32,502 bases of DNA from Gemmataceae bacterium (GCA_036406755.1 DASXAN010000859.1:1-32502); one strand, 5' to 3'. Counted from the stretch's first letter, positions 14,351-32,502 are shown. Notes: generated by a model not told the origin, from the letters alone. Made by a program: numbers and translations.

Positions 14351-14386
14351 GGCCGACCGGCGGACCGGGATCCGCGCCGGTCGGCC
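14351..14386. repeat. 36-nt imperfect palindrome (12-bp perfect GC stem) in a gene-free divergent spacer
   Basis: ggccgaccggcg (14351-14362) pairs with cgccggtcggcc (14375-14386). The 12-nt spacer has inner gga/tcc pairing. Confidence 0.5.
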
Positions 14387-14791: not shown

Positions 14792-15691
14792 ATGAGATAC
14801 GTTCTCCTCACTCTCCTCGCCTTTTCGTGTTTCTCCTGGGCGCGGCCCGTCGGGAACTCGCCGTACGCGGATGAGATCCGAAGGTGGCGATCGGACCGGG
14901 AGACAAAGCTGCGCGCCGACAACGGCTGGCTGACGCTCGCCGGCCGCTACCCCCTCAAGGAAGGGCGGAACACGTTCGGCACCGGGAAAAGCAACGACGT
15001 CATCTTCCCGGCCGCACTCAAGGGGACCGGCCCCGAACGGTTGGGGACCATCGACGTGGACCCCAAGGCGAACAAGGTCACCCTGAAACTGGCGGACGGG
15101 GTGTCGATGGTGAGAGGCGGCAAGTCGTTTTCGGGCGAGCGGGCCCTCGGGACGGCCACCGACAAGCGGGACTGGGTCGGGCTGGGTCGCCTGAGCATGC
15201 ACGTCATCGAGCGCGACGGCAAGTACTTCTTGCGGTTGGCGGACAACGAGTCGCCGGTTCGCAAGAACTTTGCCGGGTGTGTTTGGTACCCGCCCGACGA
15301 GGCGTATCGGGTCGAAGCCAGGTTCGTGCCCTACCCCGAGGTCAAGACGCTGTCCATCGTGAACATCGTCGGCGAAGTGTCCAAGCAACCGTGCCCGGGG
15401 TATGCGGAATTCCAACTCCACGGCAAGGCCCACCGACTGGACGCGATCAAGGAAGGCGAGGGGTTGTTCTTCGTTTTTCGCGACGCCACGGCCGGCGACA
15501 CCACCTACAGGGCGGCGCGGTTTCTCGACGTCGAAAAGCAGCCGAAGGCGAACGAGACGTTTACTCTGGACTTCAACAAGGCCTACAACCCGCCGTGCGC
15601 CTTTTCCGCGTACACGACCTGTCCCCTGCCGCCGAAACAGAACATTCTGAAGACGCGAATCGAAGCCGGTGAGAAGTACGAGAAGCACTGA
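14792..15691 (+). CDS. DUF1684 domain-containing protein
   Basis: 299-aa ORF with the N-terminal signal MRYVLLTLLAFSCFSWA. The family-typical C-terminus is FRDATAGDTTY…FTLDFNKAYNPPCAFSAYTTCPLPPKQNILKTRIEAGEKYEK. The gene is visibly less GC-rich than its neighbours. Confidence 0.9.
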   Translation: MRYVLLTLLAFSCFSWARPVGNSPYADEIRRWRSDRETKLRADNGWLTLAGRYPLKEGRNTFGTGKSNDVIFPAALKGTGPERLGTIDVDPKANKVTLKLADGVSMVRGGKSFSGERALGTATDKRDWVGLGRLSMHVIERDGKYFLRLADNESPVRKNFAGCVWYPPDEAYRVEARFVPYPEVKTLSIVNIVGEVSKQPCPGYAEFQLHGKAHRLDAIKEGEGLFFVFRDATAGDTTYRAARFLDVEKQPKANETFTLDFNKAYNPPCAFSAYTTCPLPPKQNILKTRIEAGEKYEKH

Positions 15692-15734
15692 GGGTGGGCA
15701 TTCCCGCCGCAACGGCGCGTGACTCCGCGCCACG

Positions 15735-15764
15735 GACACCGGCGTGGCTCGCCGAGCCGGTGTC
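15735..15764. terminator. Hairpin between convergent genes (candidate bidirectional terminator)
   Basis: gacaccggc (15735-15743) pairs with gccggtgtc (15756-15764), a 9-bp stem with a 12-nt loop. It lies between the DUF1684 stop (15691) and the RHS stop (15771). Confidence 0.4.
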
Positions 15765-15770
15765 GGCACG

Positions 15771-18700: not shown

Positions 18701-21700
18701 GGCCGGCGGCGTCGTAGAAGTAGGTGGTCGTGAACCCGTCCTGATCGACCATGCTGGTGCGGCGGCCGTTCTGGTAGGTGTATTGCAGGAATCGGCCGTC
18801 GGGGTAGGTGACCTTGGTGACCCGGTCGGGGTTGAGCGGGTCGAGATACTCCAGCACCGTCGCCCCGGTCGCGTCGACGGCCAGGTCCACGTTGCCGCGG
18901 GCGTTGTAGTGGTACTGCACGAACGAGCCGTCGGGCAAGGCTCGCCGCTCCAGCCGGCCGTCGCCGTTGACCTGGTAATCCACCAGCTGGCCGCGGCGAT
19001 TTGTCCACGCGTCGGGCTCGCCGCGGGCGTCGGGACTGAAGCGGTCGGCGCTGCCGTCGGCGTAGGTGATCGAGGTCAGGTTGCCGCGGCTGTCGTAGCC
19101 GTAGGTCAGCGGGTTACCGCGGGCGTCGGTAAGGGATGCGAGCCGGTTGAAGTCGGCGGTGTAGCCGAAGGCCGTGACCTGGCCCAGCGGGTTGGTGGCG
19201 CGGACCACATTCCCACGGCCGTCGTATTGGTACAGGTAGTTCTGCCCGAGGGCGTCGGTGACGCTGGTCAGGTTGAAGTCGTTGTCGTGGCCGAAGAGGG
19301 TGCGGCGGCCCAGTGCGTCCTCCACGGCGGCCACTTGCGCCTGGTGGTCGAAGAAGAACTTCGTGGCGTTGCCCAGGGCGTCGGTTGCCGTCACCCGGCC
19401 GGCCGAGTCGTAGGTGAAGCTGACCCGCTCGGCGTTGTTGTCCCGCGCCATCGAGTCCAGCCGGCCGTGGGTGTCGTAGGTGAAGAACGCGTGGGTGTTG
19501 TCGGGGTACGCGATCGACAGCAGGCCGTGTGCGCTGGCCCCGGCGGCGGTGCTGTAGGTGTAGTGCGTCGTCTGGCCGTCGATGCCCTGGACGGCCAACA
19601 GGTGCTCGCCGGCGGGGTCGTAGGTGTAGACCACGGTGCGGCCGGCCTGGTCGGTCAGGCCGGTGATCCGGCCCGCGGTGTACGTGATCTGCAGGAACTG
19701 GCCGGCGGAGTGGGTCAGGCGGGTCAGTTGTGTGCCGGTCCAGGTGGCGGTGACGCGGTTGCCGTTGGGGTCTTCGACGTAGTCCACCCGGCCGTCGCTG
19801 CGGAAGCGGGTCACCAGGCCGTCCGGCTCGCGGAGGACGAAGGCCCCGCCGACCAACCCCGACAGCGTGGCGTGGTCGCCGGCCTGGGCGAAGTAGCGGC
19901 CGGCGAAGCGGGCGTCCGGCTCGAACCGGCGGTCGTGGCCGTCCAGCCCCGAGACGACCGCGGTGCCGTCCGGCTCCAACGTCACGGACCGGTCCCAGCC
20001 GTCGGCCCACGCCCAGCCGCGGCCGAAGGGCCCTTGCTCGTACCGGCCGACGGTGCTGGTGGAGAAGACGCGGGTCAACCGGATCGGTAAGCCGGGCGCA
20101 TCGACCTGGAGGTCGGTGGCGGCGGCCAGGGTCGGCACCGGACTGAAGCCGATCGCCTGCTCCACCTCGAACCGCCACAGGCTGTCCACGTCCTTGACCG
20201 TCTCCCCGAGCCGCCCGAGGTACTGGGCGTTGTCGCTGAGCATGGTTTGGAAGTCGCCCCAGGTGGGGCCGACCTGGGCGACGAGGTTGCCGTAGATCGG
20301 CGCCCAGGCCTCGGCCGAGATGTCGGGCGGGCGGAGCGTGTCCTGCAACGAGGGCCAGTCGATCGGCGTGGTACTCGCGTTGAATACTGATAGGGAGGAG
20401 TGCAAGAAGCCGTCGCCGAAGTCCAGGGGCCCACCCAACCCGACGAAATAGACGGGGACACGAACGTGTTCGCCCGGTTGGAGCAGGCCGGGGGTGGCCC
20501 CGGAGGCGTTGATCTGCACCGTGTCGCTGAAGCCGCCGGGCTTCGCCGAGGTCCGCGCCCCCGGCAGCAACCGGCTTTCGTCGAGTGTGAACAGCGCCTT
20601 GTTCGAGCCGTGCAGGGCCAGGAGCGGGGCGGGCATGGGGGCGTCGCCGTTGTTGCCGTACTCGACGTAGAGGCGTTCGACAACGCCGAAGTAAAAGACC
20701 TGTCCGGGGACAATCAGGTGGACCTCGAGGTCCGGGTGGCCGCCCGCGACAACCCGGAAGGCGCCGGCCAGCACGGCCGCCCCGCCGGCGGGGCGGCGGA
20801 CTCGCACCGAGTAAGTCCCCGGCGGGACGCTCCCGGCGGCGAAGTTGGCCGTCAGGTGGGTGGGCGTGTCGATCGACACGGCGTCCGCCGGGTAGGTCGC
20901 CCCCCCGGAATCCGACAGCTCGACGATCGTCGTCCGGTCGAAGCCGGCGCCGGTCAGGGTGAGGGTCATGCCCGTGCCGTTGCCGAGGTGGGTTGGTGAC
21001 GTGTTGGTCAGGAAAAGGGCGCCGGCGTCGGCGGTCAGCGTGTACGCGTCGGCGGAGAAGACGGACTGGCTGTAGAGCAGGACGTACCAGGCGCCCGGCG
21101 CCGCACTCGGCACGGACAGCAGTTGGTCCCCCGACGCCGCGGTGGCGCTGAACTGGAAATCACCCCGGGTCGGCGGCGTGCCGAACTTCGCGTACAGCTC
21201 GTTGCGGTTGAAGTTGGCCTGGTCATCGAGGACGACGCGGAGCTGCTGGCCGGCGGGCACGTCCACGCGGAAGAGTCGCGCCTGACCGCTGCCGATCAGG
21301 TTGCCGGCAAAGGGCGTCCCCAGAGTCAGAACGGTCTGGCTCGTTTCCAGGAGGCGGAAGGCGTAACTGCCGTCCTGGTTCGCCCCTGCGGTCACCTCCA
21401 GCGTGTACGTCCCGTCCGCCGGCAGGGTGACCGGGCTGGAGTCGCCGGTCAGGCCGGTGAAGCCGACGAAGTCGTTCGGCCCGGTCAGCTTGAACTGGAG
21501 CGTCGTCGGCGCGGCGTTGACCCAGTCGAACGTCACCTGTTGGTTGGCGGCGGCCGTGAAGGTCCAGTGATCGATGCCGAACGGGGTTTCGAGGGTGCCG
21601 TGCGTCTCCTGGTTGAGCTGAACCGGCCGCGTGCTCACGCTCGCATTCCAGAGGGCGAGCACGTAGTTACCCTGGTCGCCCCCCGACGCGGCCCGCACCT

Positions 21701-24032
21701 GAATGCGGTAGGTGCCGTCGGCGGGCAGGACGACAGCCGGGAGCGTCACGATCTGCCCGGACGCGTTGCTGAAGCCGGAAGCGACGAGCGCGCCGGAGGG
21801 GTTCAGCAGGCGGACGTCGGCAAGGTTCAGCGTGGGCGGCAGCGCCGCCGGCGCGCCCGTGGTGCCGGGGTTGGCCACGACGGTGACGGACTGGCCCGCC
21901 CTGCCGAAGAACGTCCACTCGTCCACTTCGCCCGTCGCCCCGATGGTGCCGGCGGTCGCCGAATTCAGGGCGATCGGGCCGCCGTCGAGAGCCCGCGTGA
22001 CGGCGCCGCCGACGACCGTCCCGTCGACCTGCGTCTGCCGGGCGTACACGTGGAACGAGTTGAGGTCCAGCGTCGCCCCGGCCGGCACGATCAGGCGGTT
22101 GACGTACAGTGCCTCCGGGCCGGCCCCGGGGGCGTTGTCGGCGTCGTCCACCAGGCGGACGTAGGTGCCGCTCTGGAACGGGGACGAGCCGCTGAGCGAC
22201 AGCGACTCGAAGGCGAAATTGCCGGCGAACCCGGCTGCGGTGCCGCCCCGGTCCTCGCCCAGGACCTCGAGGAGCTGCGGGCTGGCGGCAGTGCCGGGGC
22301 CCGTGAAGCGGACGGTCGCCTGCGGGGCAAACAGGTCGGCATTGGTGGTTGACCCCAGCAGGCTGCCGAGGTTTGACCCGTTCGTGCCGCTGATGGCAAA
22401 CGTCCCCGTCGGCTGGCCGGTGAGGGCGCCGGGGCCGTTGTTCCGGAGGGCCATGCCGGCAACGGTCAACGTGGCGTTGCCGCCCACGTCGAGGACGCCG
22501 GTGTTAATAAAGGTCTGCCCCGTTCCGGCCTGGCCGATCGTGAAGCTACCGCCTGTGAACGTGATGGTGCCACTGTTGGCGTGCGCCGCTCCGGGCTTGC
22601 TGACGGTCAGCGTGGTCTGCCCATCGAGCTGGGCGGTGAACATGCCCTGGTTGTCCAGCTGCGCGGCCAGGAAGCGGCTGCCGCTCGGCAAGACGCGGAT
22701 GGTCCCGCCCACGGCGTTGGTCAAGGTGCCGCTCGTGACCGACAACTGGGTGGTGAAGTTCTGCTGGCCGGTCAGCTCGATCGTGCCCTGGTTGGCGAAG
22801 CCGCTGGCCACCGTCGAGATCCCGTTCACCCGCAGGGTGCCGCCCGGCGCGTTGCCGAACGCGCCGTTCAGCGTGCCGGATTGCAGCAGGAGCGTGCCCT
22901 GATTGAGCAGGGGGGCGTTGAAGGCGCCTCCCGACAGCGTCACCGACTTGCCCGCCGGATTGGTGAACGTCCCCGGCGAGGTGACGGTCACGTTGCTGAG
23001 CTGTAGCGAGGCCAGGCCGTTGCTGAAGTCCCCGCCGAAGTCGGCCGTCGAATTCGTCAGTGACAGGGTGCCCGCCCCGCTGATCGTGCCGGCGTTGTGA
23101 TGGAACGGGCTGTTACTGATGCTAACGGTGCGCCCGCCGCCGATGGTCACGGTGCCGGTGTTGGTGAAGGACGGCCCGGTGCCGGACTGGAGGATGAAGA
23201 CGTCACCGCCCGTCACGCTGATCGTGCCGCTGTTGGCGTAGACGGCCGAGGGCTTGTTGAGGGTCAGCCGGCTCTGCACCTGCAGGGCGCCGCGGTTGTC
23301 GAGCGAGGCCTCCACGATGTGTAAGACGCCGGACGTGGTCACGGTCCGGATCATCCCGCCCGCCGCGTTGAGCAACGTGCCGCTACTAACCGTGAGCTGC
23401 GAACTGAAGCCCCCGTCGCCGGTCAGCTCGAGCGTGCCCTGGTTGGTGAAGCCTTGGGCCACCGTCAGGTGCGAGCGGTCCGCCCGGAGGAGGGAGCCGG
23501 GCGCGGTGCCGACCACGCCGTTGAGCGTGCTGTTCCCCTGAGATAGCAGCGTTCCCCGGTTGTCCAGGGCCACGTTCAGGGTGCCGTTGACCAGCTCCGT
23601 CGCGGCCGAGTTGGTCAGCGTACCGGCGCCGTTCAGCGTGCTCCCGGTGAGCCGCAGCGTGCCACCGGCAACCGTAAGGCCGGCGTCGACCTGGGACGTG
23701 GCGGCGCCGAGGGCAAATGTCCCCGCCGTGATCCGGAGGGCCGCGGCACTGGCCACGCTGCGGACCGTGACGCTGCCCGAGGACGCGACGGTGACGCCGG
23801 CGAAGGCACTGCCAATCTGGGCGTCGTCCGCCGCTCCCGGCAGCACGTCGCCGGCCCAGTTCACCGGGTCGTTCCAGGTCGTGCCGGTGCCCGCGGGGCC
23901 GCCGTCCCAGGCGACCACGGCCGGCGCCAACCGGGTTTCCAGGGGTTCCAGCACCAGCGGCCGCCAACGCCGGCGCGGCTGCCGACTGCCGGGGAGGCGC
24001 TTCAAGAATGGCGGGACGACGGGGTGGCGCAC
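15771..24032 (-). CDS. Giant secreted RHS/YD-repeat protein (2753 aa). Order: N-terminal beta-helix modules, three pre-peptidase-C-terminal-like domains, an Ig-like region, the YD shell with a canonical C-terminal core motif, then a 623-aa tail ending in dockerin-like repeats
   Basis: GTG start at 24032 with AAGGAG (reverse complement of 24040-24045) 7 nt upstream. The N-terminus is RRRWRPLVLEPLETRLAPAV. A ~230-aa module is duplicated (…GFTNQGTLELTGDGGFSSQLTVSSGTLLNAAGGMIRTV / …GFANQGTIELTGQQNFTTQLSVTSGTLTNAVGGTIRVL). PPC-like units include GEVDEWTFFGRAGQSV and GIDHWTFTAAANQQV. There are many YD repeats (YTYDPAGEHL, FTYDSAGRV, YQYDGRGNV…). The core end reads RERWYDPAQGRFTAHDPIGLSGGDVNWYRYVSNDPVNRVDPTGL. 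Confidence 0.9.
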   Translation of the reverse strand: MRHPVVPPFLKRLPGSRQPRRRWRPLVLEPLETRLAPAVVAWDGGPAGTGTTWNDPVNWAGDVLPGAADDAQIGSAFAGVTVASSGSVTVRSVASAAALRITAGTFALGAATSQVDAGLTVAGGTLRLTGSTLNGAGTLTNSAATELVNGTLNVALDNRGTLLSQGNSTLNGVVGTAPGSLLRADRSHLTVAQGFTNQGTLELTGDGGFSSQLTVSSGTLLNAAGGMIRTVTTSGVLHIVEASLDNRGALQVQSRLTLNKPSAVYANSGTISVTGGDVFILQSGTGPSFTNTGTVTIGGGRTVSISNSPFHHNAGTISGAGTLSLTNSTADFGGDFSNGLASLQLSNVTVTSPGTFTNPAGKSVTLSGGAFNAPLLNQGTLLLQSGTLNGAFGNAPGGTLRVNGISTVASGFANQGTIELTGQQNFTTQLSVTSGTLTNAVGGTIRVLPSGSRFLAAQLDNQGMFTAQLDGQTTLTVSKPGAAHANSGTITFTGGSFTIGQAGTGQTFINTGVLDVGGNATLTVAGMALRNNGPGALTGQPTGTFAISGTNGSNLGSLLGSTTNADLFAPQATVRFTGPGTAASPQLLEVLGEDRGGTAAGFAGNFAFESLSLSGSSPFQSGTYVRLVDDADNAPGAGPEALYVNRLIVPAGATLDLNSFHVYARQTQVDGTVVGGAVTRALDGGPIALNSATAGTIGATGEVDEWTFFGRAGQSVTVVANPGTTGAPAALPPTLNLADVRLLNPSGALVASGFSNASGQIVTLPAVVLPADGTYRIQVRAASGGDQGNYVLALWNASVSTRPVQLNQETHGTLETPFGIDHWTFTAAANQQVTFDWVNAAPTTLQFKLTGPNDFVGFTGLTGDSSPVTLPADGTYTLEVTAGANQDGSYAFRLLETSQTVLTLGTPFAGNLIGSGQARLFRVDVPAGQQLRVVLDDQANFNRNELYAKFGTPPTRGDFQFSATAASGDQLLSVPSAAPGAWYVLLYSQSVFSADAYTLTADAGALFLTNTSPTHLGNGTGMTLTLTGAGFDRTTIVELSDSGGATYPADAVSIDTPTHLTANFAAGSVPPGTYSVRVRRPAGGAAVLAGAFRVVAGGHPDLEVHLIVPGQVFYFGVVERLYVEYGNNGDAPMPAPLLALHGSNKALFTLDESRLLPGARTSAKPGGFSDTVQINASGATPGLLQPGEHVRVPVYFVGLGGPLDFGDGFLHSSLSVFNASTTPIDWPSLQDTLRPPDISAEAWAPIYGNLVAQVGPTWGDFQTMLSDNAQYLGRLGETVKDVDSLWRFEVEQAIGFSPVPTLAAATDLQVDAPGLPIRLTRVFSTSTVGRYEQGPFGRGWAWADGWDRSVTLEPDGTAVVSGLDGHDRRFEPDARFAGRYFAQAGDHATLSGLVGGAFVLREPDGLVTRFRSDGRVDYVEDPNGNRVTATWTGTQLTRLTHSAGQFLQITYTAGRITGLTDQAGRTVVYTYDPAGEHLLAVQGIDGQTTHYTYSTAAGASAHGLLSIAYPDNTHAFFTYDTHGRLDSMARDNNAERVSFTYDSAGRVTATDALGNATKFFFDHQAQVAAVEDALGRRTLFGHDNDFNLTSVTDALGQNYLYQYDGRGNVVRATNPLGQVTAFGYTADFNRLASLTDARGNPLTYGYDSRGNLTSITYADGSADRFSPDARGEPDAWTNRRGQLVDYQVNGDGRLERRALPDGSFVQYHYNARGNVDLAVDATGATVLEYLDPLNPDRVTKVTYPDGRFLQYTYQNGRRTSMVDQDGFTTTYFYDAAGRLEFLRDGAGALIAHYHYDPAGRLDHEDKGNGTSTEYQHDAAGQLEHLINRAPDGTVNSRFDYVYDALGRRTQMTTLDGVWDYACDGIGELTRAVFTSNNPAVIPNQDLQYAYDAVGNRVRTVLNGVTTNYVTNNLNQYTQIGTATLGYDLDGNLVSRTDGGGTTTYAYDALNRLTGVTAPGGTWSYLFDALGDRTATVHDGQRTDYLIDPFGMGNVVGEYAGNGSLIADYVVGLGLTSRVEPAGGAAYFDFDGNGNTAQLTGAAGVVLNTYRYLPFGESLTATGTVANPFTYVGQFGVMNGGQGLSFMRERWYDPAQGRFTAHDPIGLSGGDVNWYRYVSNDPVNRVDPTGLWPNNHMEQDVRAAITMEREAALATLAAAAAAAADAAANEANLAELVAAVERAADEADLSDLVAAAAAAADDAGLQDLVDAAMAQFPPDDAVASMAAAASSGPGFGLSIGIWGGSPGADSGPAIPPMPAPVAPSGTISGSVTSGASRLVRAIDPNEKTGPAGFGPAHYIAADGVVPYRVEFENEADATAPAHRVIVTDQLDANLDWDTFAWTQIGFGDVILTVPEGSRHYRTTVPLTQNGRTFQVEIELDLDPQTGRLTAVFDSIDPATGLPPDALTGFLPPEDGTGRGIGFLGYTVRPKAGLPTGTPLRNVARIVFDGNDPIDTNQVDPHNPAAGTDPAKEARNTLDAGRPTSSVQALPAVTDTASFLVRWSGQDDAGGSGVAAYAVFVSDNGGPFTLWQATAATSAVYTAQDGHTYAFYTEAIDNVGNRQPTPAAAQATTTVVARPPTVVGITVNDGSAQRSRVTSLAVTFNQVVTLGAGAFDLRRSDGLAITLTPTVTVLDGRTVATLTFSGAGTEFGSLADGLYTLSVRASGVADALGTALDGDGDGAAGGDRRFDTHRLFGDIDGDKDVDLLDLNPLVPALFGILGQPNYNPGFDFDGDGDVDLLDLNQFVQRLFIVLP
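15774..15950 (-). other. Dockerin-like / EF-hand Ca-binding repeat pair at the extreme C-terminus of the RHS giant
   Basis: GDIDGDKDVDLLDLNPLVPALFG…FDFDGDGDVDLLDLNQFVQRLFIVLP contains two DxDxDGxxDxxD-type loops. Confidence 0.7.
17388..17531 (-). repeat. Three tandem 48-nt (16-aa) Ala/acidic repeats inside the RHS tail
   Basis: The units are NEANLAELVAAVERAA / DEADLSDLVAAAAAAA / DDAGLQDLVDAAMAQF. The anchor ccacgag recurs at 17408, 17456 and 17504, exactly 48 nt apart. Confidence 0.8.
17643..20048 (-). other. RHS/YD-repeat shell region (about aa 1329-2130) ending in the DPxGL autoproteolysis-type motif
   Basis: Runs from GRYEQGPFGRGWAWADGWDRS (codon top at 20048) to DPTGL (Leu codon 17643-17645). 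Confidence 0.8.
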
Positions 24033-24156
24033 GCTGGAACTCCTTGCGTAGGGTCCGGCAGGGAAGGCGGCCGGCCTTCGGGGACTTCAAGGCGGCGAAC
24101 GGAACGGCGCCCCGCCGGATCGCCGGGTACGGCTCCCGCCGTCGCCGCCCTCCTGT

Positions 24157-24204
24157 GCGACGCCGGCGCCCGAAACACGTCAGGCGCACGTCGGTTTTCT
24201 TCGG
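24157..24204 (-). promoter_or_regulatory. Copy A of a conserved 48-nt element, 124 nt upstream of the RHS giant start
   Basis: Plus strand: gcgacgccggcgcccgaaacacgtcaggcgcacgtcggttttcttcgg. It overlaps the last 7 codons and the stop of the 24180..24980 gene. It shares blocks GCGACGC(1-7), GAAAC(16-20), CGTCAG(22-27) and a T-run (from position 39 or 40 to 45) with copies B and C. Confidence 0.6.
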
Positions 24205-24980
24205 ACGGCCCGGCAACCCGCCGCTCCGGCCAGACTGCCGATGCCGGTCAGGACGAGCGTCAGGCCGCCCGGCGTGGGGGCGGCGAACGCCGCCGGCGGG
24301 ACGGTCAACACGCTGGAGTAGCCGTAGAGGTGGTGTTGCTCGGTGCGCGGCGCATCATTCTGGGAAACCCAGCCGCTGTCGGAAATGTTGCGGGCGGAGC
24401 CGAAAGTGACGAACGCCCCGCCGCCCAGCGGCTCGAAGGCGGTGCCGTCCTGCAGGGTGCCCGTCCACACGATCACCTCGCCGCCGACGTCAACGCCCGA
24501 CTCCGTCACGGTGATGGGGAAGCTGCCGGGGCCGCTCACCCACAAAGTCCCGGCGGAGGGCGCCACCAAACCGCCGTCGAGGCGGTACAGGGGCGGGGAG
24601 CCGGCCACCCGCGGGAGCCGGTCCACCGCGTCCACGGTCGGGGTGGACGCGAGGGCCTGCCAGGTGACGGGGGTGCCGAAGTAGGTGTCGATCCCCGCCA
24701 CCACGGCCAGGTTGGTAATGAACTGATCGTAGTCGGCGATGTCGGCCGACCGGGCGTCCCGGGTGGCGCTGGACAGGAACGCGATCCGGAACTGGTCGCC
24801 GGGGTGCAGGCCGGCCGGGACCAACATCAGGTCCGCCCGGCCGGGCGACGCGGACCAGAGGCCCACGACCAACGCGCCCAGGGCGACCGCCGTCCACGTC
24901 CTGACGGCCCTGTCGCCGGCGTGCCGGAACGGCCGGTCGGAGCGGACGGAAGCCAATGGGCCGCACGGCAGAAGCACCAT
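24180..24980 (-). CDS. Small secreted or anchored protein with a PEP-CTERM-like but non-canonical C-terminal tail
   Basis: Track ORF 24180..25046, which starts at GTG. ATG 24980 is preferred because GGAAGG lies 4 nt upstream. There is a hydrophobic leader RTWTAVALGALVVGLWSASPGRA, and a body segment FRIAFLSSATRDARSADIADYDQFITNLA recalls PEP-CTERM cargo proteins. The tail is TPGGLTLVLTGIGSLAGAAGCRAVRRKPTCA, a hydrophobic helix plus basic cluster without a PEP motif. Confidence 0.6.
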   Translation of the reverse strand: MVLLPCGPLASVRSDRPFRHAGDRAVRTWTAVALGALVVGLWSASPGRADLMLVPAGLHPGDQFRIAFLSSATRDARSADIADYDQFITNLAVVAGIDTYFGTPVTWQALASTPTVDAVDRLPRVAGSPPLYRLDGGLVAPSAGTLWVSGPGSFPITVTESGVDVGGEVIVWTGTLQDGTAFEPLGGGAFVTFGSARNISDSGWVSQNDAPRTEQHHLYGYSSVLTVPPAAFAAPTPGGLTLVLTGIGSLAGAAGCRAVRRKPTCA

Positions 24981-25085
24981 GATGCCTTCCGGTCGAGTGA
25001 CGAAGGTGTTCCCGTCGCCTTCAGGGCCCTCCGGGGACGGGTTCACCGCGGAGGCCGCAGAGACAGTGCGTGGTCCGCCTGATAT

Positions 25086-25133
25086 GCGACGCGGCGGCGT
25101 GAAACACGTCAGTCGGGATGGGGTTTTCTTCAG
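25086..25133 (-). promoter_or_regulatory. Copy B of the conserved 48-nt element, between the kinase stop and the small-protein start
   Basis: Plus strand: gcgacgcggcggcgtgaaacacgtcagtcgggatggggttttcttcag. 35 of 48 positions are identical to copy A with no gaps. It lies 105 nt upstream of ATG 24980 (39 nt from GTG 25046). Confidence 0.6.
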
Positions 25134-25258
25134 AATCGTCGCCGGCCTTGGCGGCGTACTACCAGCCGCGGTCGGCGGGAGACGGCGAGATGGTCAGAAA
25201 CTCGGCGTCCTGCGCCAGGTCGGCACAGGGCGGCGGCCACGTCGGCAACGTCGGTCCT

Positions 25259-28200
25259 TCACTTCGCCGTCGGGGCCGGCAGCGCCGCCTCGCGCGCCTT
25301 TAGCTTGTCCTCCAGGTCCGCGACCAGTTTGCTGAAGTCATCGCGGTCGCGGAGTACGGCGAAGGCGCGGTCATTCTTCAGGCGAGCCATCCAGTTGCGG
25401 ATCGCGACGAGGGCCCAGCCGCTCTTCGGATTGGTGATCCAGTCCAAGTCGGCAGCGATGGCTCGCTTGAGCCAGGCCATGGCCCGGTCGGCTTCGGCGG
25501 CGTCCTCGACCGGTGGAGCGGATTTCGGGTCGGCCGCCCGAATCACGGCGGCCGTCACCGCCCGCATGCGGGCCGCCGTGTAGAGGCTGTCGGCGTCGGT
25601 GCGGTTGAGCCGCTCCCACATCTCGGCGGTCGCCCGGCAGCCGGCGGCGTCCTTGGTGGTTTCAAAGTGGCGCAGCCGATAGTTCATCAGGGCTGAAATC
25701 GACTTCGAATTGACGTCTTTGCCGGCCGCATGCTTGACGTACTCGTCGATCAGTGGCACCGCCTCCGCGCCGCGCCGGAGGTTCATCAAGATGATGACAA
25801 CGGCGTCCATGCTGTCGAGGGTGTCGGGGTGGTCGGGGCCGAACGTGCTCCGCCGGGCCGCGAGGACCTCTTCCGCGAGTTTCAGAGCGACCGAGTACCG
25901 GCGGGCGGCCGCGTGGATGGACGCGAGATCGTCCTTGGTGGCGAGGGTGTCGCGGTGCCGGGGTCCGAGTTTGGCGGTCCGAATCGCCAGGACTTCTTCG
26001 GCGGTCTTGACCGCCTCGGCGTCGCGGCCGGCCCGGCTGTACGCGACGGCAAGCTGGCTCGCGGCACGGAGGGTGGCGGGGGCCTCCGGGCCGAACTTCG
26101 CCCTGTGCAGCACGATCAGCTCTTCGCCAAGTTGGATCGCCTCGGGGTGCCGGTCGAGGTGGGAACAGCACCGGGCCAGGTTCCCCAGGGCCGCGAGCAG
26201 CAACGCGGAGGGGTGGTCGGGGCCGTCCCTGGCCTGACACAGCGCAAACAGGTCGTCGCGGATCGTGAGCGCGCCGGCTTGCCGGATCGGAGTGACGTAG
26301 TTCGCGTTAGGGGCGGCCCGGCTCGCGGGGCGGTCGGGGGCGTCAGAGCCGGCCTTCCCCCGTTCTAGCGCCCGCCGTTCTTCGAGGACCAGGAGCCCTT
26401 CGGCGTGCCGACCCAGGCTGGCGTAGGTGCTCGCCAGGTTAAACACGCTATCGAGCGTGTTCTTGTGGTCGCGGCCGTCCTTGGCCTTGTGCCGCGACAC
26501 CAGCTCCAGGCGGAGCTTCAGAGCGTCTTCGTGTTGGCGGGCAAAGGTGTAGCGCGACGCCAAAATGTTCATGCGCGCGAGGGTGTCGGGATGATCGCGG
26601 CCGAGCTTGGCACTTTGCACCGTCAGCACTTGTTCTTCGAGTCGTAACGCTTCCGCGTGCCGGCCGAGGGAGCGGTACGTCTCGGCCAGACGGTCCATGG
26701 TCCAGACCGCGGTAGGGTGGTCCGGGCCGAGCTTGGCCCGGACCACCGCCAGGCTATCCTCGTAAAGTTTGGCGGCCTCGGCCCCGCGGTCGAGGGAGTA
26801 GTATGCGTGAGCGAGGTTAGTCATGCACCGGGCCGTGTCGGGGTGGTCGGCGCCCCGGTGCGTCACGTAGAGCCTGCGGGCCGCCTCGAATTGCTCCGCC
26901 GCGGCCTTGAAGGTTTCCGGCCTGCCCTGCAGGAAGAACGATTGACCGACCGTCATCCGCAGCCGCGCCTCCGTGAGCGGCTGCTTCTTGAAACTGGTTT
27001 CCACGAACGGCAGCGCCTGTTCGATGGCCCGCCGCAGGGTCGCCTGCTGACCCAGGCCGCCGTTGTTCACCGGCCGCATGGCGGCCAGGATCCGCCCCTC
27101 CACGAAGTCGAGCACCGCCCGGGCCTCGGCGTCGCTGGCCTCGGCGGCCTCTTTCGCCGTCTGCTCGGCGGCCGCCGCCGCGAGCGCTTTCTGTCCGGCC
27201 TTCACGGCGTCGTCGCGGGCGAGGGCGGCCGCGTCCCGCTCCCGGCGGGCGTGGACCAGCCCCAGCGTCGTGCCGACGATGCCGCCGACGAGCACCACGG
27301 CCACCGCGGCCGCGGCCAGCACGGGGCCCCGGTGCCGGCGGGCGAACTTCCGCAGCCGGTACGCCAGCGACGGCGGGCCGGCCAGCACCGGCTCGTCGGC
27401 CAGAAACCGCTCCAGGTCCGCGGCGAGTTCGTTGGCCGTCCCGTACCGCCGCCCGCGGTCCTTCTCCAGGCACTTCATCACCACCCAGTCGAGGTCGCCG
27501 CGGAGGGCGGCCGTCCGTTTGTCCGGCCCGGCGTGCCTCACGGCCGCCAGGCTCGGCCGGGGCGGGTCCACCTCCCGGATCATCCGCAGGACCTCGGAGA
27601 GCGGCAGGGTGGTCAGATCCTTGCGGGGGAACGGCACGCTGCCGGTGAGCAGTTCGTACAGGACCACGCCGAGGCCGTAAACGTCGCTGCGGGTGTCCGT
27701 GTCGGGGTTCGTCAGGTCCGCCTGCTCGGGCGACATGTACTCCAGGGTGCCGATGAACGAGCCGGCCTCCGTGTCGATACTTTGCTCGGTCAGCCGCGGG
27801 CCGGTCGCCTTGGCGATGCCGAAGTCGATCACCTTCGGGACCGGCCGGCCGTCCACGTCGGCGACCAAGATGTTGGACGGCTTGATGTCGCGGTGAATGA
27901 CGCCCTTCTGGTGGGCGTGCTGCACCGCTCGACAGACGGGGAGGAACAGCCCCAGCCGCTGGCGCGGGGTGAGGGCGTTGGCATCGCAGTAGGCGGTGAC
28001 GGGGACGCCGTCGATGTACTCCATGACGAAGTACGGGCGGCCCGCGGGCCCGCCCGTGTCGGATTCGGGCCCGCCGACGCCGGCGTCGAGGATCTTGGCG
28101 ATGTTCGGGTGGTCCATCAGGGCCAGGGCCTGCCGCTCCTGCTCGAACCGGGCCAGCAGGCGGGCGGAGTCGTGGCCGGGGCGGACCACCTTGAGGGCGA

Positions 28201-28513
28201 CGCGGCGGCGGACGGGGGCGGTCTGGTCGGCGACCCAGACCTCGCCCATGCCCCCTTCGCCGAGCTTCCGACGGAGGACGAACCGGCCGGCGAACGTCCG
28301 GCCCGCGGCCAGCGGCTCCGGCCAGCCAGGCCCGGCCGCGAGGCCGTCGGGGCCGCGCTCGAGGATACCGCGGGTATGGCAGTCGGCCGCCAGCAGCCGC
28401 TCCACCCGCGCCCGCAGGGCCGCGTCGCCCGCGCAGCCGGCGGCCAGGAACGCCTGCCGCTCGGCCGCGGTGGCGATCTCCAGGGCGGCCGCGAACAGCG
28501 ACTCCTCGTTCAT
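25259..28513 (-). CDS. Ser/Thr protein kinase with one transmembrane helix and a long C-terminal TPR (TPR_10/12-like) domain (1084 aa)
   Basis: ATG 28513. Kinase motifs are LGEGGMGEVWVA, VALKVV, HRDIKPSNILV, DFGIAK and YMSPEQ. The TM helix is VLAAAAVAVVLVGGIVGTTLGLV. About 8 repeats follow of …LG(P/R)DHPDTL…(L/M)A..Y..LGR..EA type. Confidence 0.92.
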   Translation of the reverse strand: MNEESLFAAALEIATAAERQAFLAAGCAGDAALRARVERLLAADCHTRGILERGPDGLAAGPGWPEPLAAGRTFAGRFVLRRKLGEGGMGEVWVADQTAPVRRRVALKVVRPGHDSARLLARFEQERQALALMDHPNIAKILDAGVGGPESDTGGPAGRPYFVMEYIDGVPVTAYCDANALTPRQRLGLFLPVCRAVQHAHQKGVIHRDIKPSNILVADVDGRPVPKVIDFGIAKATGPRLTEQSIDTEAGSFIGTLEYMSPEQADLTNPDTDTRSDVYGLGVVLYELLTGSVPFPRKDLTTLPLSEVLRMIREVDPPRPSLAAVRHAGPDKRTAALRGDLDWVVMKCLEKDRGRRYGTANELAADLERFLADEPVLAGPPSLAYRLRKFARRHRGPVLAAAAVAVVLVGGIVGTTLGLVHARRERDAAALARDDAVKAGQKALAAAAAEQTAKEAAEASDAEARAVLDFVEGRILAAMRPVNNGGLGQQATLRRAIEQALPFVETSFKKQPLTEARLRMTVGQSFFLQGRPETFKAAAEQFEAARRLYVTHRGADHPDTARCMTNLAHAYYSLDRGAEAAKLYEDSLAVVRAKLGPDHPTAVWTMDRLAETYRSLGRHAEALRLEEQVLTVQSAKLGRDHPDTLARMNILASRYTFARQHEDALKLRLELVSRHKAKDGRDHKNTLDSVFNLASTYASLGRHAEGLLVLEERRALERGKAGSDAPDRPASRAAPNANYVTPIRQAGALTIRDDLFALCQARDGPDHPSALLLAALGNLARCCSHLDRHPEAIQLGEELIVLHRAKFGPEAPATLRAASQLAVAYSRAGRDAEAVKTAEEVLAIRTAKLGPRHRDTLATKDDLASIHAAARRYSVALKLAEEVLAARRSTFGPDHPDTLDSMDAVVIILMNLRRGAEAVPLIDEYVKHAAGKDVNSKSISALMNYRLRHFETTKDAAGCRATAEMWERLNRTDADSLYTAARMRAVTAAVIRAADPKSAPPVEDAAEADRAMAWLKRAIAADLDWITNPKSGWALVAIRNWMARLKNDRAFAVLRDRDDFSKLVADLEDKLKAREAALPAPTAK

Positions 28514-28580
28514 CGTGCTCGCCCCTGGTCAAGAACGGGGTGGGGCCACGCCAAGCCCTGACATTATGGTCAGACTCCTC

Positions 28581-30881
28581 CTAGATCACAACGAACGGAC
28601 CGAAGATGTCGTCGTCGCTCGTGGAGGCGTGGTTCCACGCGACCAGGGTGAGCGGGTCGAGGTCGAGCAGGCCGAGATTGTAGACGCCGCCGCCCACGCC
28701 GGCGCGGCCGGTGGCCCGGTTGTCGATGACCAGGCTGGCCCGCAGGTGGAGGGCGGACGTGGCGTCGTTGTACGCCCCGCCGCCGTAGCCGTTGCTGCCT
28801 GGGCCGCCGGCGGCGCGGTTGTGGGCGAGCACGCTGCCGGTCACGGTGGTGGTGGCCGAGAAGAGGTTGGCGATCCCGCCGCCCCAGCCATCGCTGCCGT
28901 GGCCAGCGGCTTCCTGCCCGCCCTGCGCCTCGTTGTGGTCCAGGCGACTGCGCGCCAGGGTCACGACGCTGGGTGCCAGCACGGAGCCGTCGGGGAACAG
29001 GAAGTTGCCGAACGCATTGAAGACGGCGCCGCCGGCGCCCAGGCCGGCGGGGAGGAGACCGCCGTCGGCCGTGTTACCATGTCCGCCGACCGCGCGATTG
29101 TGATCGAGGCCGCTGTCGCTGACGTCCGCCGCCGACCCGAAGAAGTTGGCGACGCCGCCGCCCAAGCCGGCGCCGACCAGCAGCATCTCGCCGTGGCCCG
29201 TGTTGTCATCACCGCCGAGTGCCTGGTTGTGCGCGACGACCGAGTTGAGGATCGTCAGCGCCGTGGGCCCAAAGTCGGGCTGATCTTCGAATTCGCTGTC
29301 GATGCCGCCGCCCACTCCGGCGCCGACAAAGCCGGTGGGATTCGTGCCGACGTTGCCGCTGCCGCCGACGGCCCGGTTGTTCATGATGATGCTGTCGCGG
29401 ACGACGGTCTCAGCCTCCTGGGCGTAGATCGCGCCACCCTCGGCCATGCCGGTTTTGGTCGGGAACGGGAGGTCGAGCCCGGAGGTGTTCCGATCCCCGC
29501 CGAAGGCCAGGTTCCCCACGAGCGTGCTCTGATTGACCTCCAGTCGTGAGCCAAGCACGTTGATGATCGCGCCACCGTAGGCTTCGCCGGCATCCGCCAG
29601 GGCCAAAGCGGAGTCGGTGATCCCGCTGCCTCCGACCGCCCGATTGTCCGAGAAGGTGCTGTGAGTAATCGAGCCGTCACTGAAGAAATACAATGCGACC
29701 GCGCCGCCGACAGCGTGGGCAGCGTCATAGGCGATCTCGGCGGTCTGACCGGCGATGGCCTGGTTGCCGGTGAAGGTGCAGTTGTTAGCCACGAGGGTAG
29801 CGAATGCCAAGGTGATGCCGCCGCCGCTGCCGTTGCCGCCGCCTTGGCCGCCGACCGCACGGTTATCGCGAATGACGCTGTCGTTAACCGTCAGAGTCCC
29901 AGCCAGAGAGTGAATGCCGCCCCCGTCGCCGATGCCGGCGGCATCCGCCCCGACGTTGCCGTTGGCCTCGTTTCCGGCAATCGAACAGCGCGTGATCACG
30001 GCCGTGGAGAGATTAACTTCGATGCCACCAGCAAAGGCTCCGCCGCCCGGGAACCCGAGCGCGCGGTTGTTCGTGATGGCGCTGTCCTCCACGGTGAGTT
30101 CACCGTCCTCGACATCGATACCGCCGCCTACAGCAGAACTGTTTCCTGAACGGGCCTCGTTGACGTTAACCGCGCTGTTGCGGACCACAGCGGCCCCGTC
30201 GAGGACAAAGATGCCGCCACCGACCCCCTGACGGACGCTCGCGACGCCGTCCGCGGCGTTACCGGTCAGGACACAATCGGTGACGCTCAAACGGTTGCCG
30301 CTTCCGGAGCTAGAGATCCCCCCGCCACTCGCGTTCAGGCTGTTGAGAACACCGACCGCCCGGTTGCCGGACACGACCACATGCGCCAGGGTCAAGTCGC
30401 TGAAGTTGGCGTTCTGGATACCGCCCCCGCGGTCGGCCACGCCGTCGGTGATGGCAAGCCCCGAAATGCTGACCGTAATCGCGGTGCCCGCGTCGGCGCC
30501 GCCGACCACGTCGAAGATGCGAGAGGCATGACTGCCGCTGACCGTGACCTTGTCGGCTCCCGGGCCGTTGATCGTCAGATCGCCGGTGATGGCGAGTTCG
30601 CCGGTGGTCAGGCGGATCGTCCCGTGGACGTTGTGGGCGAAGTCGATCGTGTCCGGGCCGGGGTGGGCCTCGGCCGCCTGAATGGCCGCCCGCAGCGACC
30701 CGGGGCCGCCGTCGGCCAGGTTGAGCACCGTGAACGTGCTGGGCAGCGCCCGGCCCTCCAGAAATTCAATCTGGGGCACAAAGCTGCGCCGGCGGACATG
30801 GTGTCGTCGATCGGATCGGCCCGAAGTCCCGGCCCGGATGACCGGGCCGGAGGCCAGCAGCCCGCGCAGCGTCTCCCACAT
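28581..30881 (-). CDS. Secreted right-handed beta-helix repeat protein (choice-of-anchor-Q / Pmp-like GGxI repeats)
   Basis: ATG 30881 with AAGGAG (reverse complement of 30888-30893) 6 nt upstream. The N-terminus is RRHHVRRRSFVPQIEFLEGRALPSTFTVLNLADGGPGSLRAAIQAAEAHPGPDTIDF. Repeats are of the form …N.A..GGGI… / NRAVGG. Confidence 0.85.
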   Translation of the reverse strand: MWETLRGLLASGPVIRAGTSGRSDRRHHVRRRSFVPQIEFLEGRALPSTFTVLNLADGGPGSLRAAIQAAEAHPGPDTIDFAHNVHGTIRLTTGELAITGDLTINGPGADKVTVSGSHASRIFDVVGGADAGTAITVSISGLAITDGVADRGGGIQNANFSDLTLAHVVVSGNRAVGVLNSLNASGGGISSSGSGNRLSVTDCVLTGNAADGVASVRQGVGGGIFVLDGAAVVRNSAVNVNEARSGNSSAVGGGIDVEDGELTVEDSAITNNRALGFPGGGAFAGGIEVNLSTAVITRCSIAGNEANGNVGADAAGIGDGGGIHSLAGTLTVNDSVIRDNRAVGGQGGGNGSGGGITLAFATLVANNCTFTGNQAIAGQTAEIAYDAAHAVGGAVALYFFSDGSITHSTFSDNRAVGGSGITDSALALADAGEAYGGAIINVLGSRLEVNQSTLVGNLAFGGDRNTSGLDLPFPTKTGMAEGGAIYAQEAETVVRDSIIMNNRAVGGSGNVGTNPTGFVGAGVGGGIDSEFEDQPDFGPTALTILNSVVAHNQALGGDDNTGHGEMLLVGAGLGGGVANFFGSAADVSDSGLDHNRAVGGHGNTADGGLLPAGLGAGGAVFNAFGNFLFPDGSVLAPSVVTLARSRLDHNEAQGGQEAAGHGSDGWGGGIANLFSATTTVTGSVLAHNRAAGGPGSNGYGGGAYNDATSALHLRASLVIDNRATGRAGVGGGVYNLGLLDLDPLTLVAWNHASTSDDDIFGPFVVI

Positions 30882-30960
30882 GACTCGCTCCTTGGCCCAC
30901 GGCGTAGTAATTTCGCCGAAACATGACGCACCGCATCGGCCACAATCGTTACCCCACCAT

Positions 30961-31008
30961 GCGACGCCGGGGGGTGAAACGCGTCAGACGGGAATCACCT
31001 TTTTTCGG
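30961..31008 (-). promoter_or_regulatory. Copy C of the conserved 48-nt element, 79 nt upstream of the beta-helix protein start
   Basis: Plus strand: gcgacgccggggggtgaaacgcgtcagacgggaatcaccttttttcgg. It has the same length and block spacing as copies A and B. It lies 55 nt downstream of the HlyD-type gene stop. Confidence 0.6.
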
Positions 31009-31063
31009 AGTCGTGCCGGTCACGCACGGGGACCCGCCGGGATTCGACCGCCGGCCCCGCCGG

Positions 31064-32502
31064 CTACCACCACCAGCATTCGGTCCGCAGGAAGCGGAGG
31101 GCCCGGTCGAATAGGATCCCGCCGAGCGGCCGCGGGCCCGTGCAGACGCGGCCGTAACCGGTCATCCCCGGCCGAAGTCCCGGCCGGCAATCGCCGAGCC
31201 GGCAATACACGGTGACGGTACTCTGCGCGTCCCCGCGCCCGGCCGCGGGGGCGATCCGGTCCACGCGGGCGGTCAGGGTTTCAAAGGGCAGCGTGCGTAC
31301 CCGGAGTGCGGCCGCCTGGCCCGGCCGCACCCGCCCCACGTCCTCCTCGGGGATGGCGATCTCAACCTCCAGGCACTCCGGCTCCTCGACCAGACAGATC
31401 AGCTCGCCCTCCCGCACGTACTGACCGACCTTTTCCTTCAGCCGCGGTGTCGTGACCAGCCCCGGCACGGGGCTGTGGACCGCCAGCCGGTCCCGGAGCT
31501 GCTCCAGGTAGCCGGCCTCCTCCTGCAGTCGGGCCAGCCGGGCGCGCTCGGCCTCGACCTCCTCGGCCCGCGGGCCGGCCTCCAGCAGCCTCAGGGCGGC
31601 CTGGGCGTCGGCCAGTTCCCTCTCCCGGCGGGCCAGTTCCGTCTCGGCGTCCAACGTGCCCCGCGCCTCGCGGGCGCGTTTCTCCGCCCGGGCCTGTTCG
31701 AGCTGGGCCTGACACACGTGGTCCCGCCGCTGGGCCTCCTCGTACTGTTCGGCGGGGATGGCGTTGCCGAGCAGGCGGGCCGCGCGGCGGGTGGCGCTCT
31801 GGGCCGCGACCAGTTCGGCCTGACACTGGGTGATGTACTTGTCCAGCCGGGCCAGGTCCGTCTCGTAGGCCAGCCGCAGGCGGCCCAGGTCGTGCCGGGC
31901 CAGGTCGTGCCACGCCCCCGCCCGCTCCACCCGACGGCGCTGTTCCGCGACCTCCTCGGGGCGCGCCCCGGACTCCAGGAGGCGCAGCCTCGCCTGGGCC
32001 TCGCGCACCTCGGCCCTCTTCTGGGTCAGGCGGCTGGCCAGGTCGGGCACCTCCAGCCGTGCCACCGGCGCCCCGGGCGAAACCCGGTCGCCCTCGTCGC
32101 AGTAGACCTCGCGGAGGAAGCCGGCGGCCGGGGCCCGCAGCTCCGCCCGGGTCGCCGGGCGGAGCTGGAACGTGCCGCCCGCCCGGTCCTCGATCTGGAT
32201 GACACACGGCCCCGCGACCAGGCCTCCCAGCGCCAGGGCCCACACGACCGCCCGCTTGCGGCGCATCCGGATCATCGTGCTCACCTCCCCGGCACAGAAC
32301 CCACAGAACAGGCCGGGCGTGGCCGCCAGCCCCACCAGGGCGACGACTCCCAGCCCCACCCACCCCCACCGCGCCCCCAGGACCCGGAGGATCGCCGCGA
32401 GCGCCACGGCGAGAAAGGCGAACGAACACAACCAGGCCGCCAGGCCGAAGCCCGCCAGCAGCCCGCCGTGCGGCTCGCCGTCCGCCGCCGGCGCCCCCCA
32501 GA
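31064..32502 (-). CDS. HlyD-family membrane-fusion/periplasmic adaptor protein, apparently fused in frame to an upstream polytopic membrane segment; the 5' end is outside the window
   Basis: Track ORF 31064..32431 begins at a TTG, but the frame stays open to the window edge with high GC3 and hydrophobic sequence (LLAGFGLAAWLCSFAFLAVALAAILRVLG…VGLGVVALVGLAATPGLFCGFCAG). The adaptor part is MIRMRRKRAVVWALALGGLVAGP…LRAPAAGFLREVYCDEGDRVSPGAPVARLE…, then a long coiled coil, then …HSPVPGLVTTPRLKEKVGQYVREGELICLVEEPECLEVEIAIPEEDVGRVRPGQAAALRVRTLPF. The internal ATG 32275 has GGAGGTG 6 nt upstream. Confidence 0.8.
   Translation of the reverse strand, partial: WGAPAADGEPHGGLLAGFGLAAWLCSFAFLAVALAAILRVLGARWGWVGLGVVALVGLAATPGLFCGFCAGEVSTMIRMRRKRAVVWALALGGLVAGPCVIQIEDRAGGTFQLRPATRAELRAPAAGFLREVYCDEGDRVSPGAPVARLEVPDLASRLTQKRAEVREAQARLRLLESGARPEEVAEQRRRVERAGAWHDLARHDLGRLRLAYETDLARLDKYITQCQAELVAAQSATRRAARLLGNAIPAEQYEEAQRRDHVCQAQLEQARAEKRAREARGTLDAETELARRERELADAQAALRLLEAGPRAEEVEAERARLARLQEEAGYLEQLRDRLAVHSPVPGLVTTPRLKEKVGQYVREGELICLVEEPECLEVEIAIPEEDVGRVRPGQAAALRVRTLPFETLTARVDRIAPAAGRGDAQSTVTVYCRLGDCRPGLRPGMTGYGRVCTGPRPLGGILFDRALRFLRTECWWW

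Follow-up and report, generated by a model that had tools for sequence, protein, structure and literature searches.

A stretch of DNA of 32,502 nt from a Gemmataceae bacterium (GCA_036406755.1 DASXAN010000859.1:1-32502; the whole stretch is referred to here as the window) carries three same-strand copies, designated A, B and C, of a conserved element of about 48 nt. Comparison with related loci suggests, with a probability of roughly 65 %, that the three repeats are copies of one specialised promoter which is read by a kinase-controlled alternative sigma factor and activates a cluster of genes for secreted proteins in this soil planctomycete. The most likely reader, judging from gene order here and in relatives, is an extracytoplasmic function (ECF) sigma factor of the PF07638/TIGR02999 (ECF43-like) type that is encoded at the head of the cluster, 2.6 kb past the right end of the window. 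That the element is a lineage-specific ECF-type promoter marking a sigma/kinase regulon is well supported by these comparisons.

Copies of the element in the window

An unprompted repeat search (find_repeats) of the window returned one 56-nt family, with members at 24155-24210, 25084-25139 and 30959-31014. The 18-base pattern GCGACGC-N8-GAAAC-N-CGTCAG matched three times, a number that was unchanged when up to three mismatches were allowed; shuffled sequence gave a mean of 0.13 matches, and none of 100 shuffles reached three. Three same-strand copies at these places, and no further full-length one, had been predicted earlier from the window sequence (the original prediction). The repeat family and the pattern search both recovered the three, and within the window neither the pattern nor a profile search (nhmmer --max) yielded a fourth. 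Over 48 nt, copies A and B are identical at 35 positions (the same value as first reported), A and C at 34, and B and C at 35, with 29 positions common to all three, in a window of 71 % G+C. Read on the gene strand, the copies conform to GAARAAA-N12-CTGACGYGTTTC-N8-GCGTCGCAY, as follows.

Copy A: 24155..24202, minus strand; A-tract GAAGAAAA at 24202-24195, -35 block TGACGTGTTT at 24182-24173, -10 block CGTCGCAC at 24162-24155
Copy B: 25084..25131, minus strand; A-tract at 25131-25124, -35 block TGACGTGTTT at 25111-25102, -10 block CGTCGCAT at 25091-25084
Copy C: 30959..31006, minus strand; A-tract at 31006-31000, -35 block TGACGCGTTT at 30986-30977, -10 block CGTCGCAT at 30966-30959

The motif of copy A ends 122 nt (first GTG) or 200 nt (called start) before the start of a gene for a giant RHS-repeat protein, that of copy B 103 nt before the called ATG of a 266-aa gene, and that of copy C 77 nt before the ATG at 30881 of a 766-aa beta-helix-like gene. 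The distances to downstream starts given in the original prediction (124 nt for A, 39 or 105 nt for B and 79 nt for C) were reproduced on recalculation, as was the gap of 67 nt between the 766-aa gene and the Ser/Thr kinase gene that starts behind it, in which there is no copy. On this placement, copy A is predicted to drive the RHS giant, copy B the gene for the 266-aa tail-anchored protein, and copy C an operon of the 766-aa gene and the kinase gene.

The element had been described as exactly 48 nt long, and two points refine that description. Copy A is partly coding, the TGA in its CTGACG (24178-24183) being the stop codon of the upstream open reading frame (ORF; 266 or 288 aa) and its A-rich block encoding the RRK tail of the same protein. 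Similarity among the copies continues for about 20 nt further downstream (GCAT-RRAGRGG...), and at copy B it reaches about 100 nt upstream, into a decayed sigma factor gene fragment. The claim that conservation is in the DNA and not in the protein was upheld.

Anatomy of the element in related genomes

In all, 28 copies were gathered; they come from roughly twelve Gemmataceae-like genomes and contigs of soil metagenomes. A variable-gap scan of the genome collection (CTGACGNGTTTC-N{7,9}-GCGTCGC) gave at least 118 loci, nearly all of them chance matches inside genes of unrelated phyla; among the matches listed, the true relatives were a Gemmataceae metagenome-assembled genome (MAG; L027) and a Planctomycetota MAG with two copies (L110). 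All three of these copies had the N8 spacing and the same flanks, and no N7 or N9 match among those listed had the flanks of the family. A stricter pattern run against the metagenome collection retrieved nine soil contigs (L119-L127), and a profile built from the collected copies retrieved one additional, diverged copy in L110. The soil contig L121 (Ga0137405_1333700) carried the same copy twice, at 1338-1366 and 2812-2840, in mirror orientation and with small indels; this pair looks like a fold-back assembly artefact and was therefore counted once. The strict pattern accounted for 14 of the 28 copies. Since half of the copies were thus selected by pattern, conservation was recounted on the 11 copies to which the sigma protein or the profile had led.

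The layout is bipartite: TGACGTGTTT and CGTCGCAT are separated by a variable spacer of 10 nt, and an A-tract usually lies about 12 nt upstream. The consensus of 22 non-redundant copies was ccGAAAAAAA-N11-cCTGACGTGTTTC-gggcccCc-GCGTCGCAT-g.aGgGgtgacga. In the 11 copies that were not pattern-selected, GAC, GTTT and CGTCGCA were invariant and the 10 positions between the blocks varied. The spacing GAC-N16-CGTC was found in 27 of the 28 copies, that of L137 being 1 nt shorter (N15). ECF promoters are marked by an AAC in the -35 region together with a CGT in the -10 region, the -35 box of SigW being ATTGAAACCTTT (PMC8103513). The element has two features of such promoters, namely two blocks held apart by a fixed, non-conserved spacer of about 16-17 nt and a CGT(C) in the -10 block, where CGTCGCA is invariant in all copies. 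The T-run after the -35 core also resembles the -35 boxes of SigW and RpoE, and together with the GAC-N16-CGTC geometry it gives an ECF-type layout. An alternative-sigma promoter, held in reserve in the original prediction, is favoured by the evidence.

The promoters of Escherichia coli RpoE (GGAACTT-N16-TCAAA) and Bacillus subtilis SigW (TGAAAC-N16-CGTA) provide the closest comparison. Like promoters of this type, the element has a two-part motif with a rigid spacer of about 16 nt, a CGTC in its downstream block, a T-run that directly follows the -35 core and perhaps an A-rich stretch upstream. It is also physically linked to an ECF sigma gene, and its targets are mostly envelope or secreted proteins. 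It differs from them in a -35 core of TGAC(G) instead of (G)AAC, in an unusually long and invariant -10 block (CGTCGCAT), and in lying behind the sigma gene, with the -35 block overlapping the stop codon and with no sign of autoregulation.

The original prediction had read CTGACG-17-TCGCAY as the -35 and -10 hexamers of a sigma-70 promoter, and this reading was not supported. A scan for the consensus (TTGACA-N16-18-TATAAT) gave no site in 23900-25400 or 30700-31300, and was thus empty at all copies. TGAC does match four bases of TTGACA, and TCGCAT has T1, A5 and T6 of TATAAT at a spacing of 17 nt, but the -10 hexamer lacks the A at its second position, a sigma-70 promoter gives no role to the invariant GTTT or to the CG of CGTC, and the invariant GAC, GTTT and CGTCGCA fit an ECF layout rather than TTGACA/TATAAT. 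The motif is also rare (three in 32.5 kb, 13 in 115 kb), occurs only at sigma-linked genes and a small number of specific others, and does not precede the remaining genes of the same loci. A housekeeping sigma-70/RpoD promoter of a high-GC lineage is therefore very unlikely.

The strong asymmetry of the conserved positions bears on a different explanation, in which the element would be an operator, i.e. the site of a repressor or activator in the promoters of co-regulated genes, perhaps recognised through the inverted repeat TGACG...CGTCG. GTTT follows the left half and GCAT the right half, and the centre is not an axis of symmetry. An inverted repeat of 4-6 bp (TGACGT/GCGTCG) is present in nearly all copies, but its arms comprise only 4 perfect bp and are 15 nt apart. 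A fixed position and orientation upstream of genes would suit an activator site as well as a promoter; no transcription-factor gene, however, was consistently linked to the copies, whereas a sigma gene was linked in eight of nine loci (see below), and no separate sigma-70-type promoter was detectable near them. An operator is considered unlikely.

Similarity runs about 20-25 nt past the core in most copies. The stretch from about +1 to +25 past CGTCGCAT is semi-conserved (RRAGRGGTGACGARCACGR) across genomes and gene contexts, for example at 30958-30935 of the window. The -35/-10 model does not account for it; it may belong to a discriminator or initially transcribed region, act as a leader element or stem from shared descent. 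An RNA element that includes the semi-conserved GGAGGGGUGACGAGCACGG, whether a conserved 5' leader, a processing site or a small RNA, is distinctly unlikely. RNAalifold, applied to 21 copies, found only a 6-bp hairpin of invariant bases (-4.75 kcal/mol) with no compensatory pairs; the sole natural variant in this stem (L133) breaks a pair without compensation, and Rfam gave no match at the gathering score. A GC-rich hairpin is present slightly further downstream in L110, L119, L120, L121 and L127, but these hairpins differ among copies and are absent from the three copies of the window. Two conserved blocks with a variable spacer are, moreover, the pattern of DNA recognition. If the element is a promoter, the conserved first 20 nt of its transcript (GGAGGGGUGACGAGCACGG) could still provide a further layer of control at the RNA level.

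A mini-ORF, GCATGGAGGGGTGA (M-E-G-stop in several copies), was rejected as a feature of the family; elsewhere the ATG is replaced by ATA or lacking, and a ribosome-binding site is absent. No terminator-like site was found on either strand in 23900-25400 or 30700-31300.

Linkage to a PF07638 sigma factor gene

In L027, L122, L123 and L110 the 70 nt upstream of the core form the 3' end of an ORF that terminates in ...STADRGWRYARAWLYAAMAGDDPEKK*, and the same sigma 3' end precedes the core in L120, where it was judged from the 3' end alone. The ORF encodes an ECF sigma factor (Pfam PF07638, 1e-55 to 1e-58; NCBIfam TIGR02999, above cut-off). A small upstream ORF, MAGDDPEKK*, was rejected as a separate feature, since it is the C-terminus of the full-length sigma gene. 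A PDB sequence search with the PF07638 sigma factor found no relative.

Sigma loci were also sampled independently of the motif, through a protein search (about 8000 relatives) from which the contigs of several were taken. Among close PF07638 sigma genes, DNA was available for nine, and behind eight of these (L128, L129, two genes in L131, L133a, L134, L136 and L137) the element followed, starting -3 to +8 nt from the stop codon. No element was found behind the sigma gene of L130, where the next gene is convergent, or at L133b, a more divergent sigma paralogue.

The source contigs of the window, L134 and L135, were recovered via its kinase, and L134 extends beyond the right window end. This contig contains a PF07638 sigma gene at 2786-3391, i.e. 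2.6-3.2 kb past the end of the window and on the same strand, with a fourth copy of the element (P0) at its stop codon. The link to an alternative sigma factor thus lay outside the view of the original prediction, just beyond the window.

At these junctions coding sequence and the presumed promoter signal overlap. The TGA of the -35 CTGACG doubles as the upstream stop codon in copy A, in L134 (3389-3391), in L128 (10601-10603) and in L122, and the A-tract encodes the last basic residues of the upstream protein (RRK or EKK). The suggestion that the A-rich block is UP-like is therefore plausible but confounded, as in most copies the block consists of the last codons of the sigma gene (..EKK*) or is derived from them.

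Remnants of the sigma gene were also found inside the window. The gap between the stop codon of the kinase gene and copy B is filled by the following relic.

Sigma relic: 25132..25228, minus strand; decayed PF07638 sigma 3' fragment (sigma-4 helix-turn-helix and C-terminus), reading ...ADLAQDAEFLTISPSPADRGW*YAAKAGDDSEEN

Aligned to the 3' end of the genome's intact sigma gene, the fragment shows an 18-nt deletion and an in-frame TAG. This alignment covers the ~100 nt that precede copy B, so that the copy evidently arose by duplication of the sigma 3' end together with the promoter. Copy C is accompanied by about 30 nt that resemble a sigma tail.

Remnants of this kind would be expected of a non-functional or selfish repeat, either REP/MITE-like (repetitive extragenic palindrome or miniature inverted-repeat transposable element) or no more than a 3' flank duplicated along with a sigma gene that has been copied many times, and ECF sigma genes are indeed massively duplicated in Gemmata (PMC7671368). 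The core has nevertheless remained invariant beside a sigma relic that has decayed by deletion and a stop codon, and the copies before hcp, vgrG and RHS genes have no sigma remnant. Every copy is co-oriented with its downstream gene, and there are no terminal inverted repeats, target-site duplications or strong hairpins. A repeat without function is considered highly improbable.

Because the promoter overlaps the sigma stop codon and the A-tract corresponds to the ..EKK* codons, the C-terminus of the sigma factor and its target promoter may form one co-evolving unit. It is conceivable, if doubtful, that the last 30-100 nt of the sigma gene travel with the promoter as a duplicating cassette, and that a gene which receives it is thereby brought into the sigma/kinase regulon; the decayed sigma-4 fragment would then mark copy B as a fresh example, copy C being an older one.

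In L110 (2275-4579), a DDE-transposase-like ORF adjoins the PF07638 sigma gene, whose C-terminus is frameshifted (..WRYSRALAVYRDGRRRSHLKTTPA). Three copies of the element lie within 3 kb after this sigma gene, and two of them precede paralogous genes with near-identical leaders of 110 nt.

Genes behind the element

The loci retrieved through the sigma protein (115 kb) hold 13 copies, each of them directed towards the next gene on its strand; 10 of these have a called downstream gene, which starts 53-329 nt away. The three copies of the window are likewise co-oriented with their downstream genes, and a co-oriented upstream position at a promoter-like distance is a feature of ECF promoters. The original prediction had proposed a minus-strand element upstream of genes that is of promoter type and not a REP/MITE repeat; tabulation of position and orientation in relatives agreed with this, the orientation bias holding in all copies tabulated.

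The genes behind the element vary, and include proteins with an LExLExR N-terminus, kinases, Hcp, VgrG and small cytoplasmic-looking proteins. The statement that the element stands in front of secreted-protein genes therefore fits the window and not the whole family. The most telling case is L128, where a divergent intergenic region holds two outward-facing copies, the first directed at four hcp genes and the second at vgrG. This suggests that genes resembling T6SS (type VI secretion system) genes belong to the regulon of the PF07638 sigma factor in some genomes.

The sigma gene of L128 is adjoined by four tandem hcp genes, vgrG and a DUF4280 (PAAR-like) gene (11206-17386).

Weighing of the promoter reading

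Several observations weigh against a promoter read by the linked sigma factor. The cores of the 14 copies retrieved with the strict pattern are invariant by construction. The -35 core, TGAC(G)TGTTT, has GAC and not the canonical AAC of ECF promoters. Profile searches found no element upstream of any of seven sigma genes (L128, L131 a and b, L133a, L134, L136 and L137), and the autoregulation that is a hallmark of ECF promoters, with the motif upstream of the sigma operon, was thus not seen; not all ECF groups autoregulate (PMC7826278). Shared descent might partly explain why the element lies so close to the sigma stop codon; sigma 3' remnants accompany copies B and C, so that the A-tract and flanks may have been inherited rather than selected. 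Lastly, no target-promoter sequence of ECF43 or from Gemmata was found for comparison in the literature accessible.

The gene cluster and a proposed mechanism

The genes of the cluster that lie in the window are listed below.

15771..24032, minus strand: RHS-repeat giant, 2727-2753 aa (Pfam RHS_repeat, DUF7619, PPC, DUF6531; gene call L135); predicted target of copy A
24180..24980, minus strand: 266-aa protein, 288 aa from the GTG at 25046 (ORF list, gene calls); predicted target of copy B
25259..28513, minus strand: Hanks-type Ser/Thr kinase with TPR repeats, 1084 aa (Pfam Pkinase 9.8e-39, TPR_10, TPR_12)
28581..30881, minus strand: 766-aa protein with LExLExR N-terminus, beta-helix-like; first gene behind copy C
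31064..32502, running past the window end, minus strand: 3' part of an 807-aa HlyD/RND-adaptor-like gene (Pfam HlyD_D23, HlyD_3)

The N-terminus of the RHS giant carries the planctomycete LExLExR motif. The 266-aa protein has a signal-like N-terminal segment and a hydrophobic C-terminal tail ending in RRK, and had no match in Pfam or NCBIfam. The counterpart of the 766-aa gene at a related locus gave faint matches to Pfam NosD/Beta_helix, and the HlyD-like gene ends 77 nt upstream of the copy C motif. With the sequence of L134 added, the order of the cluster is sigma, [P0], a 183-aa repeat protein, a 296-aa TPR protein and the 807-aa HlyD-like protein, followed by [C], the 766-aa protein, the kinase, [B], the 266-aa protein, [A] and the RHS giant. 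The sigma gene, the kinase gene and the four copies of the element are thus all on one strand.

The 183-aa protein encoded directly behind P0 (L134, 3531-4082) consists of four repeats of about 45 aa, each containing IVKLEQRIAPK..TNHNETLVR, so that the planctomycete N-terminal 'LExR' motif is repeated within one protein.

In the mechanism that we infer, the sigma factor would be made in a weakly active state, since its region sigma-2.2, which contacts RNA polymerase, reads D-A-T-A where canonical ECF sigma factors have DxxD/E. A Hanks-type Ser/Thr kinase would then phosphorylate it, and the TPR-repeat kinase encoded in the cluster is a candidate for this activator. The holoenzyme would bind TGACGTGTTT at about -35 and CGTCGCAT at about -10, at the fixed GAC-N16-CGTC distance and perhaps aided by the upstream A-tract, and transcription would start a few bases downstream, in the purine-rich GCAT-RRAGRGG. 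Four promoters within one 12-kb cluster would in this way be switched on together: P0 for the 183-aa repeat protein, the TPR protein and the HlyD-like gene, copy C for the beta-helix-like protein and the kinase, copy B for the tail-anchored 266-aa protein and copy A for the RHS giant. As the kinase gene lies behind copy C, the circuit would include positive feedback onto the kinase.

Kinase linkage and comparison with ECF43 systems

A Hanks-type kinase gene was found beside or near the sigma gene in the source cluster, in L128, L131, L133, L136 and L137, and in three further loci for which gene tables only were used. Co-occurrence with such kinases is a feature of ECF43-type systems. The PF07638 and TIGR02999 models presumably correspond to ECF43, and the linked sigma factor was placed by these two models only. 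In an alignment of region sigma-2.2 from the PF07638 sigma factors, the other ECF sigma factor of the window and RpoE, the motif reads D-A-T-A, EAEE and DVPD, respectively. In DATA the Thr and the loss of the last acidic residue agree with an ECF43-type motif, but the first Asp is kept.

According to the published model for ECF43, a neighbouring kinase phosphorylates a Thr in the de-acidified DAED motif, upon which the sigma factor binds core polymerase (PMC13147305, PMC8999054). The kinase linkage and the DATA motif, as analysed here, appear to fit this model. In Xanthomonas citri, the ECF43 pair EcfK/PknS controls a T6SS (PMC6653060), which is paralleled by the copies before hcp and vgrG in L128.

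The circuit proposed here thus resembles EcfP-PknT of Vibrio parahaemolyticus and EcfK-PknS of X. citri in its type of sigma factor (PF07638/TIGR02999) and in the kinase genes that recur beside the sigma gene. The DATA of sigma-2.2 may likewise be a substitute for DAED, its Thr perhaps matching the residue that is phosphorylated in EcfP; the neighbouring genes included none recognisable as an anti-sigma gene, and the motif stands before hcp and vgrG in one related genome. It differs from them in belonging to a Gemmataceae-like planctomycete clade with many paralogues, in kinases of cytoplasmic-looking TPR or WD40 types, in the first Asp of the motif, which is kept, and in its targets, which in the window are RHS, beta-helix-like and tail-anchored proteins. 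Phosphorylation and dependence on the sigma factor are proposals in the present case.

Implications for planctomycete regulons

In the Gemmataceae, ECF sigma factors number in the dozens and Ser/Thr kinases about 100-150, and to our knowledge targets have been established for almost none of them. The motif would provide a concrete recognition sequence for one large planctomycete sigma clade (about 8000 close relatives) and a first sketch of its regulon, comprising RHS, beta-helix-like and tail-anchored proteins and the kinase itself, with Hcp and VgrG elsewhere. It could also serve as a handle on a sigma-phosphorylation circuit in a phylum with difficult genetics, and might offer an orthogonal sigma/promoter pair for synthetic biology. 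As a regulon prediction it is useful and concerns an ordinary kind of biology, leaving the general view of promoter function unchanged. No description of the motif was found in the literature accessible. Published predictions of ECF promoters search only upstream of sigma operons (bioRxiv 10.1101/2019.12.11.873521), and a promoter behind the sigma gene would therefore have been missed.

A second sigma/kinase pair at the left end of the window

The window contains an unrelated second ECF sigma gene at 452-1051 (minus strand), directly followed by another Ser/Thr kinase gene that runs from 443 off the window. The encoded sigma factor matched only the generic Sigma70_r2 and sigma70-ECF models, and the profile search of the window found no copy of the element adjoining its gene. 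Work by Jogler in 2012 and by Casas-Pastor in 2021 reportedly described planctomycete ECF groups that are associated with kinases, ECF59-62 and ECF217. The circuit proposed for the element shares with these the phylum and sigma-kinase pairs without an anti-sigma factor, and a second pair of this kind lies at the window's left end; the sigma factor linked to the element, unlike theirs, is of the PF07638 type.

Divergent from the 452-1051 sigma gene is a gene for a PATR/PEP-CTERM giant (2051 aa; 1172-7327, plus strand), and no copy of the element precedes it. The protein contains 11 PATR (passenger-associated transport) repeats, and its C-terminus carries a PEP-CTERM sorting signal. Upstream of the same sigma gene, at 1118-1091, is the sequence GCAACGAGTTTTTTCGGGCCGACTCTCC, which looks like a different ECF-style promoter (AAC, then a T-run).

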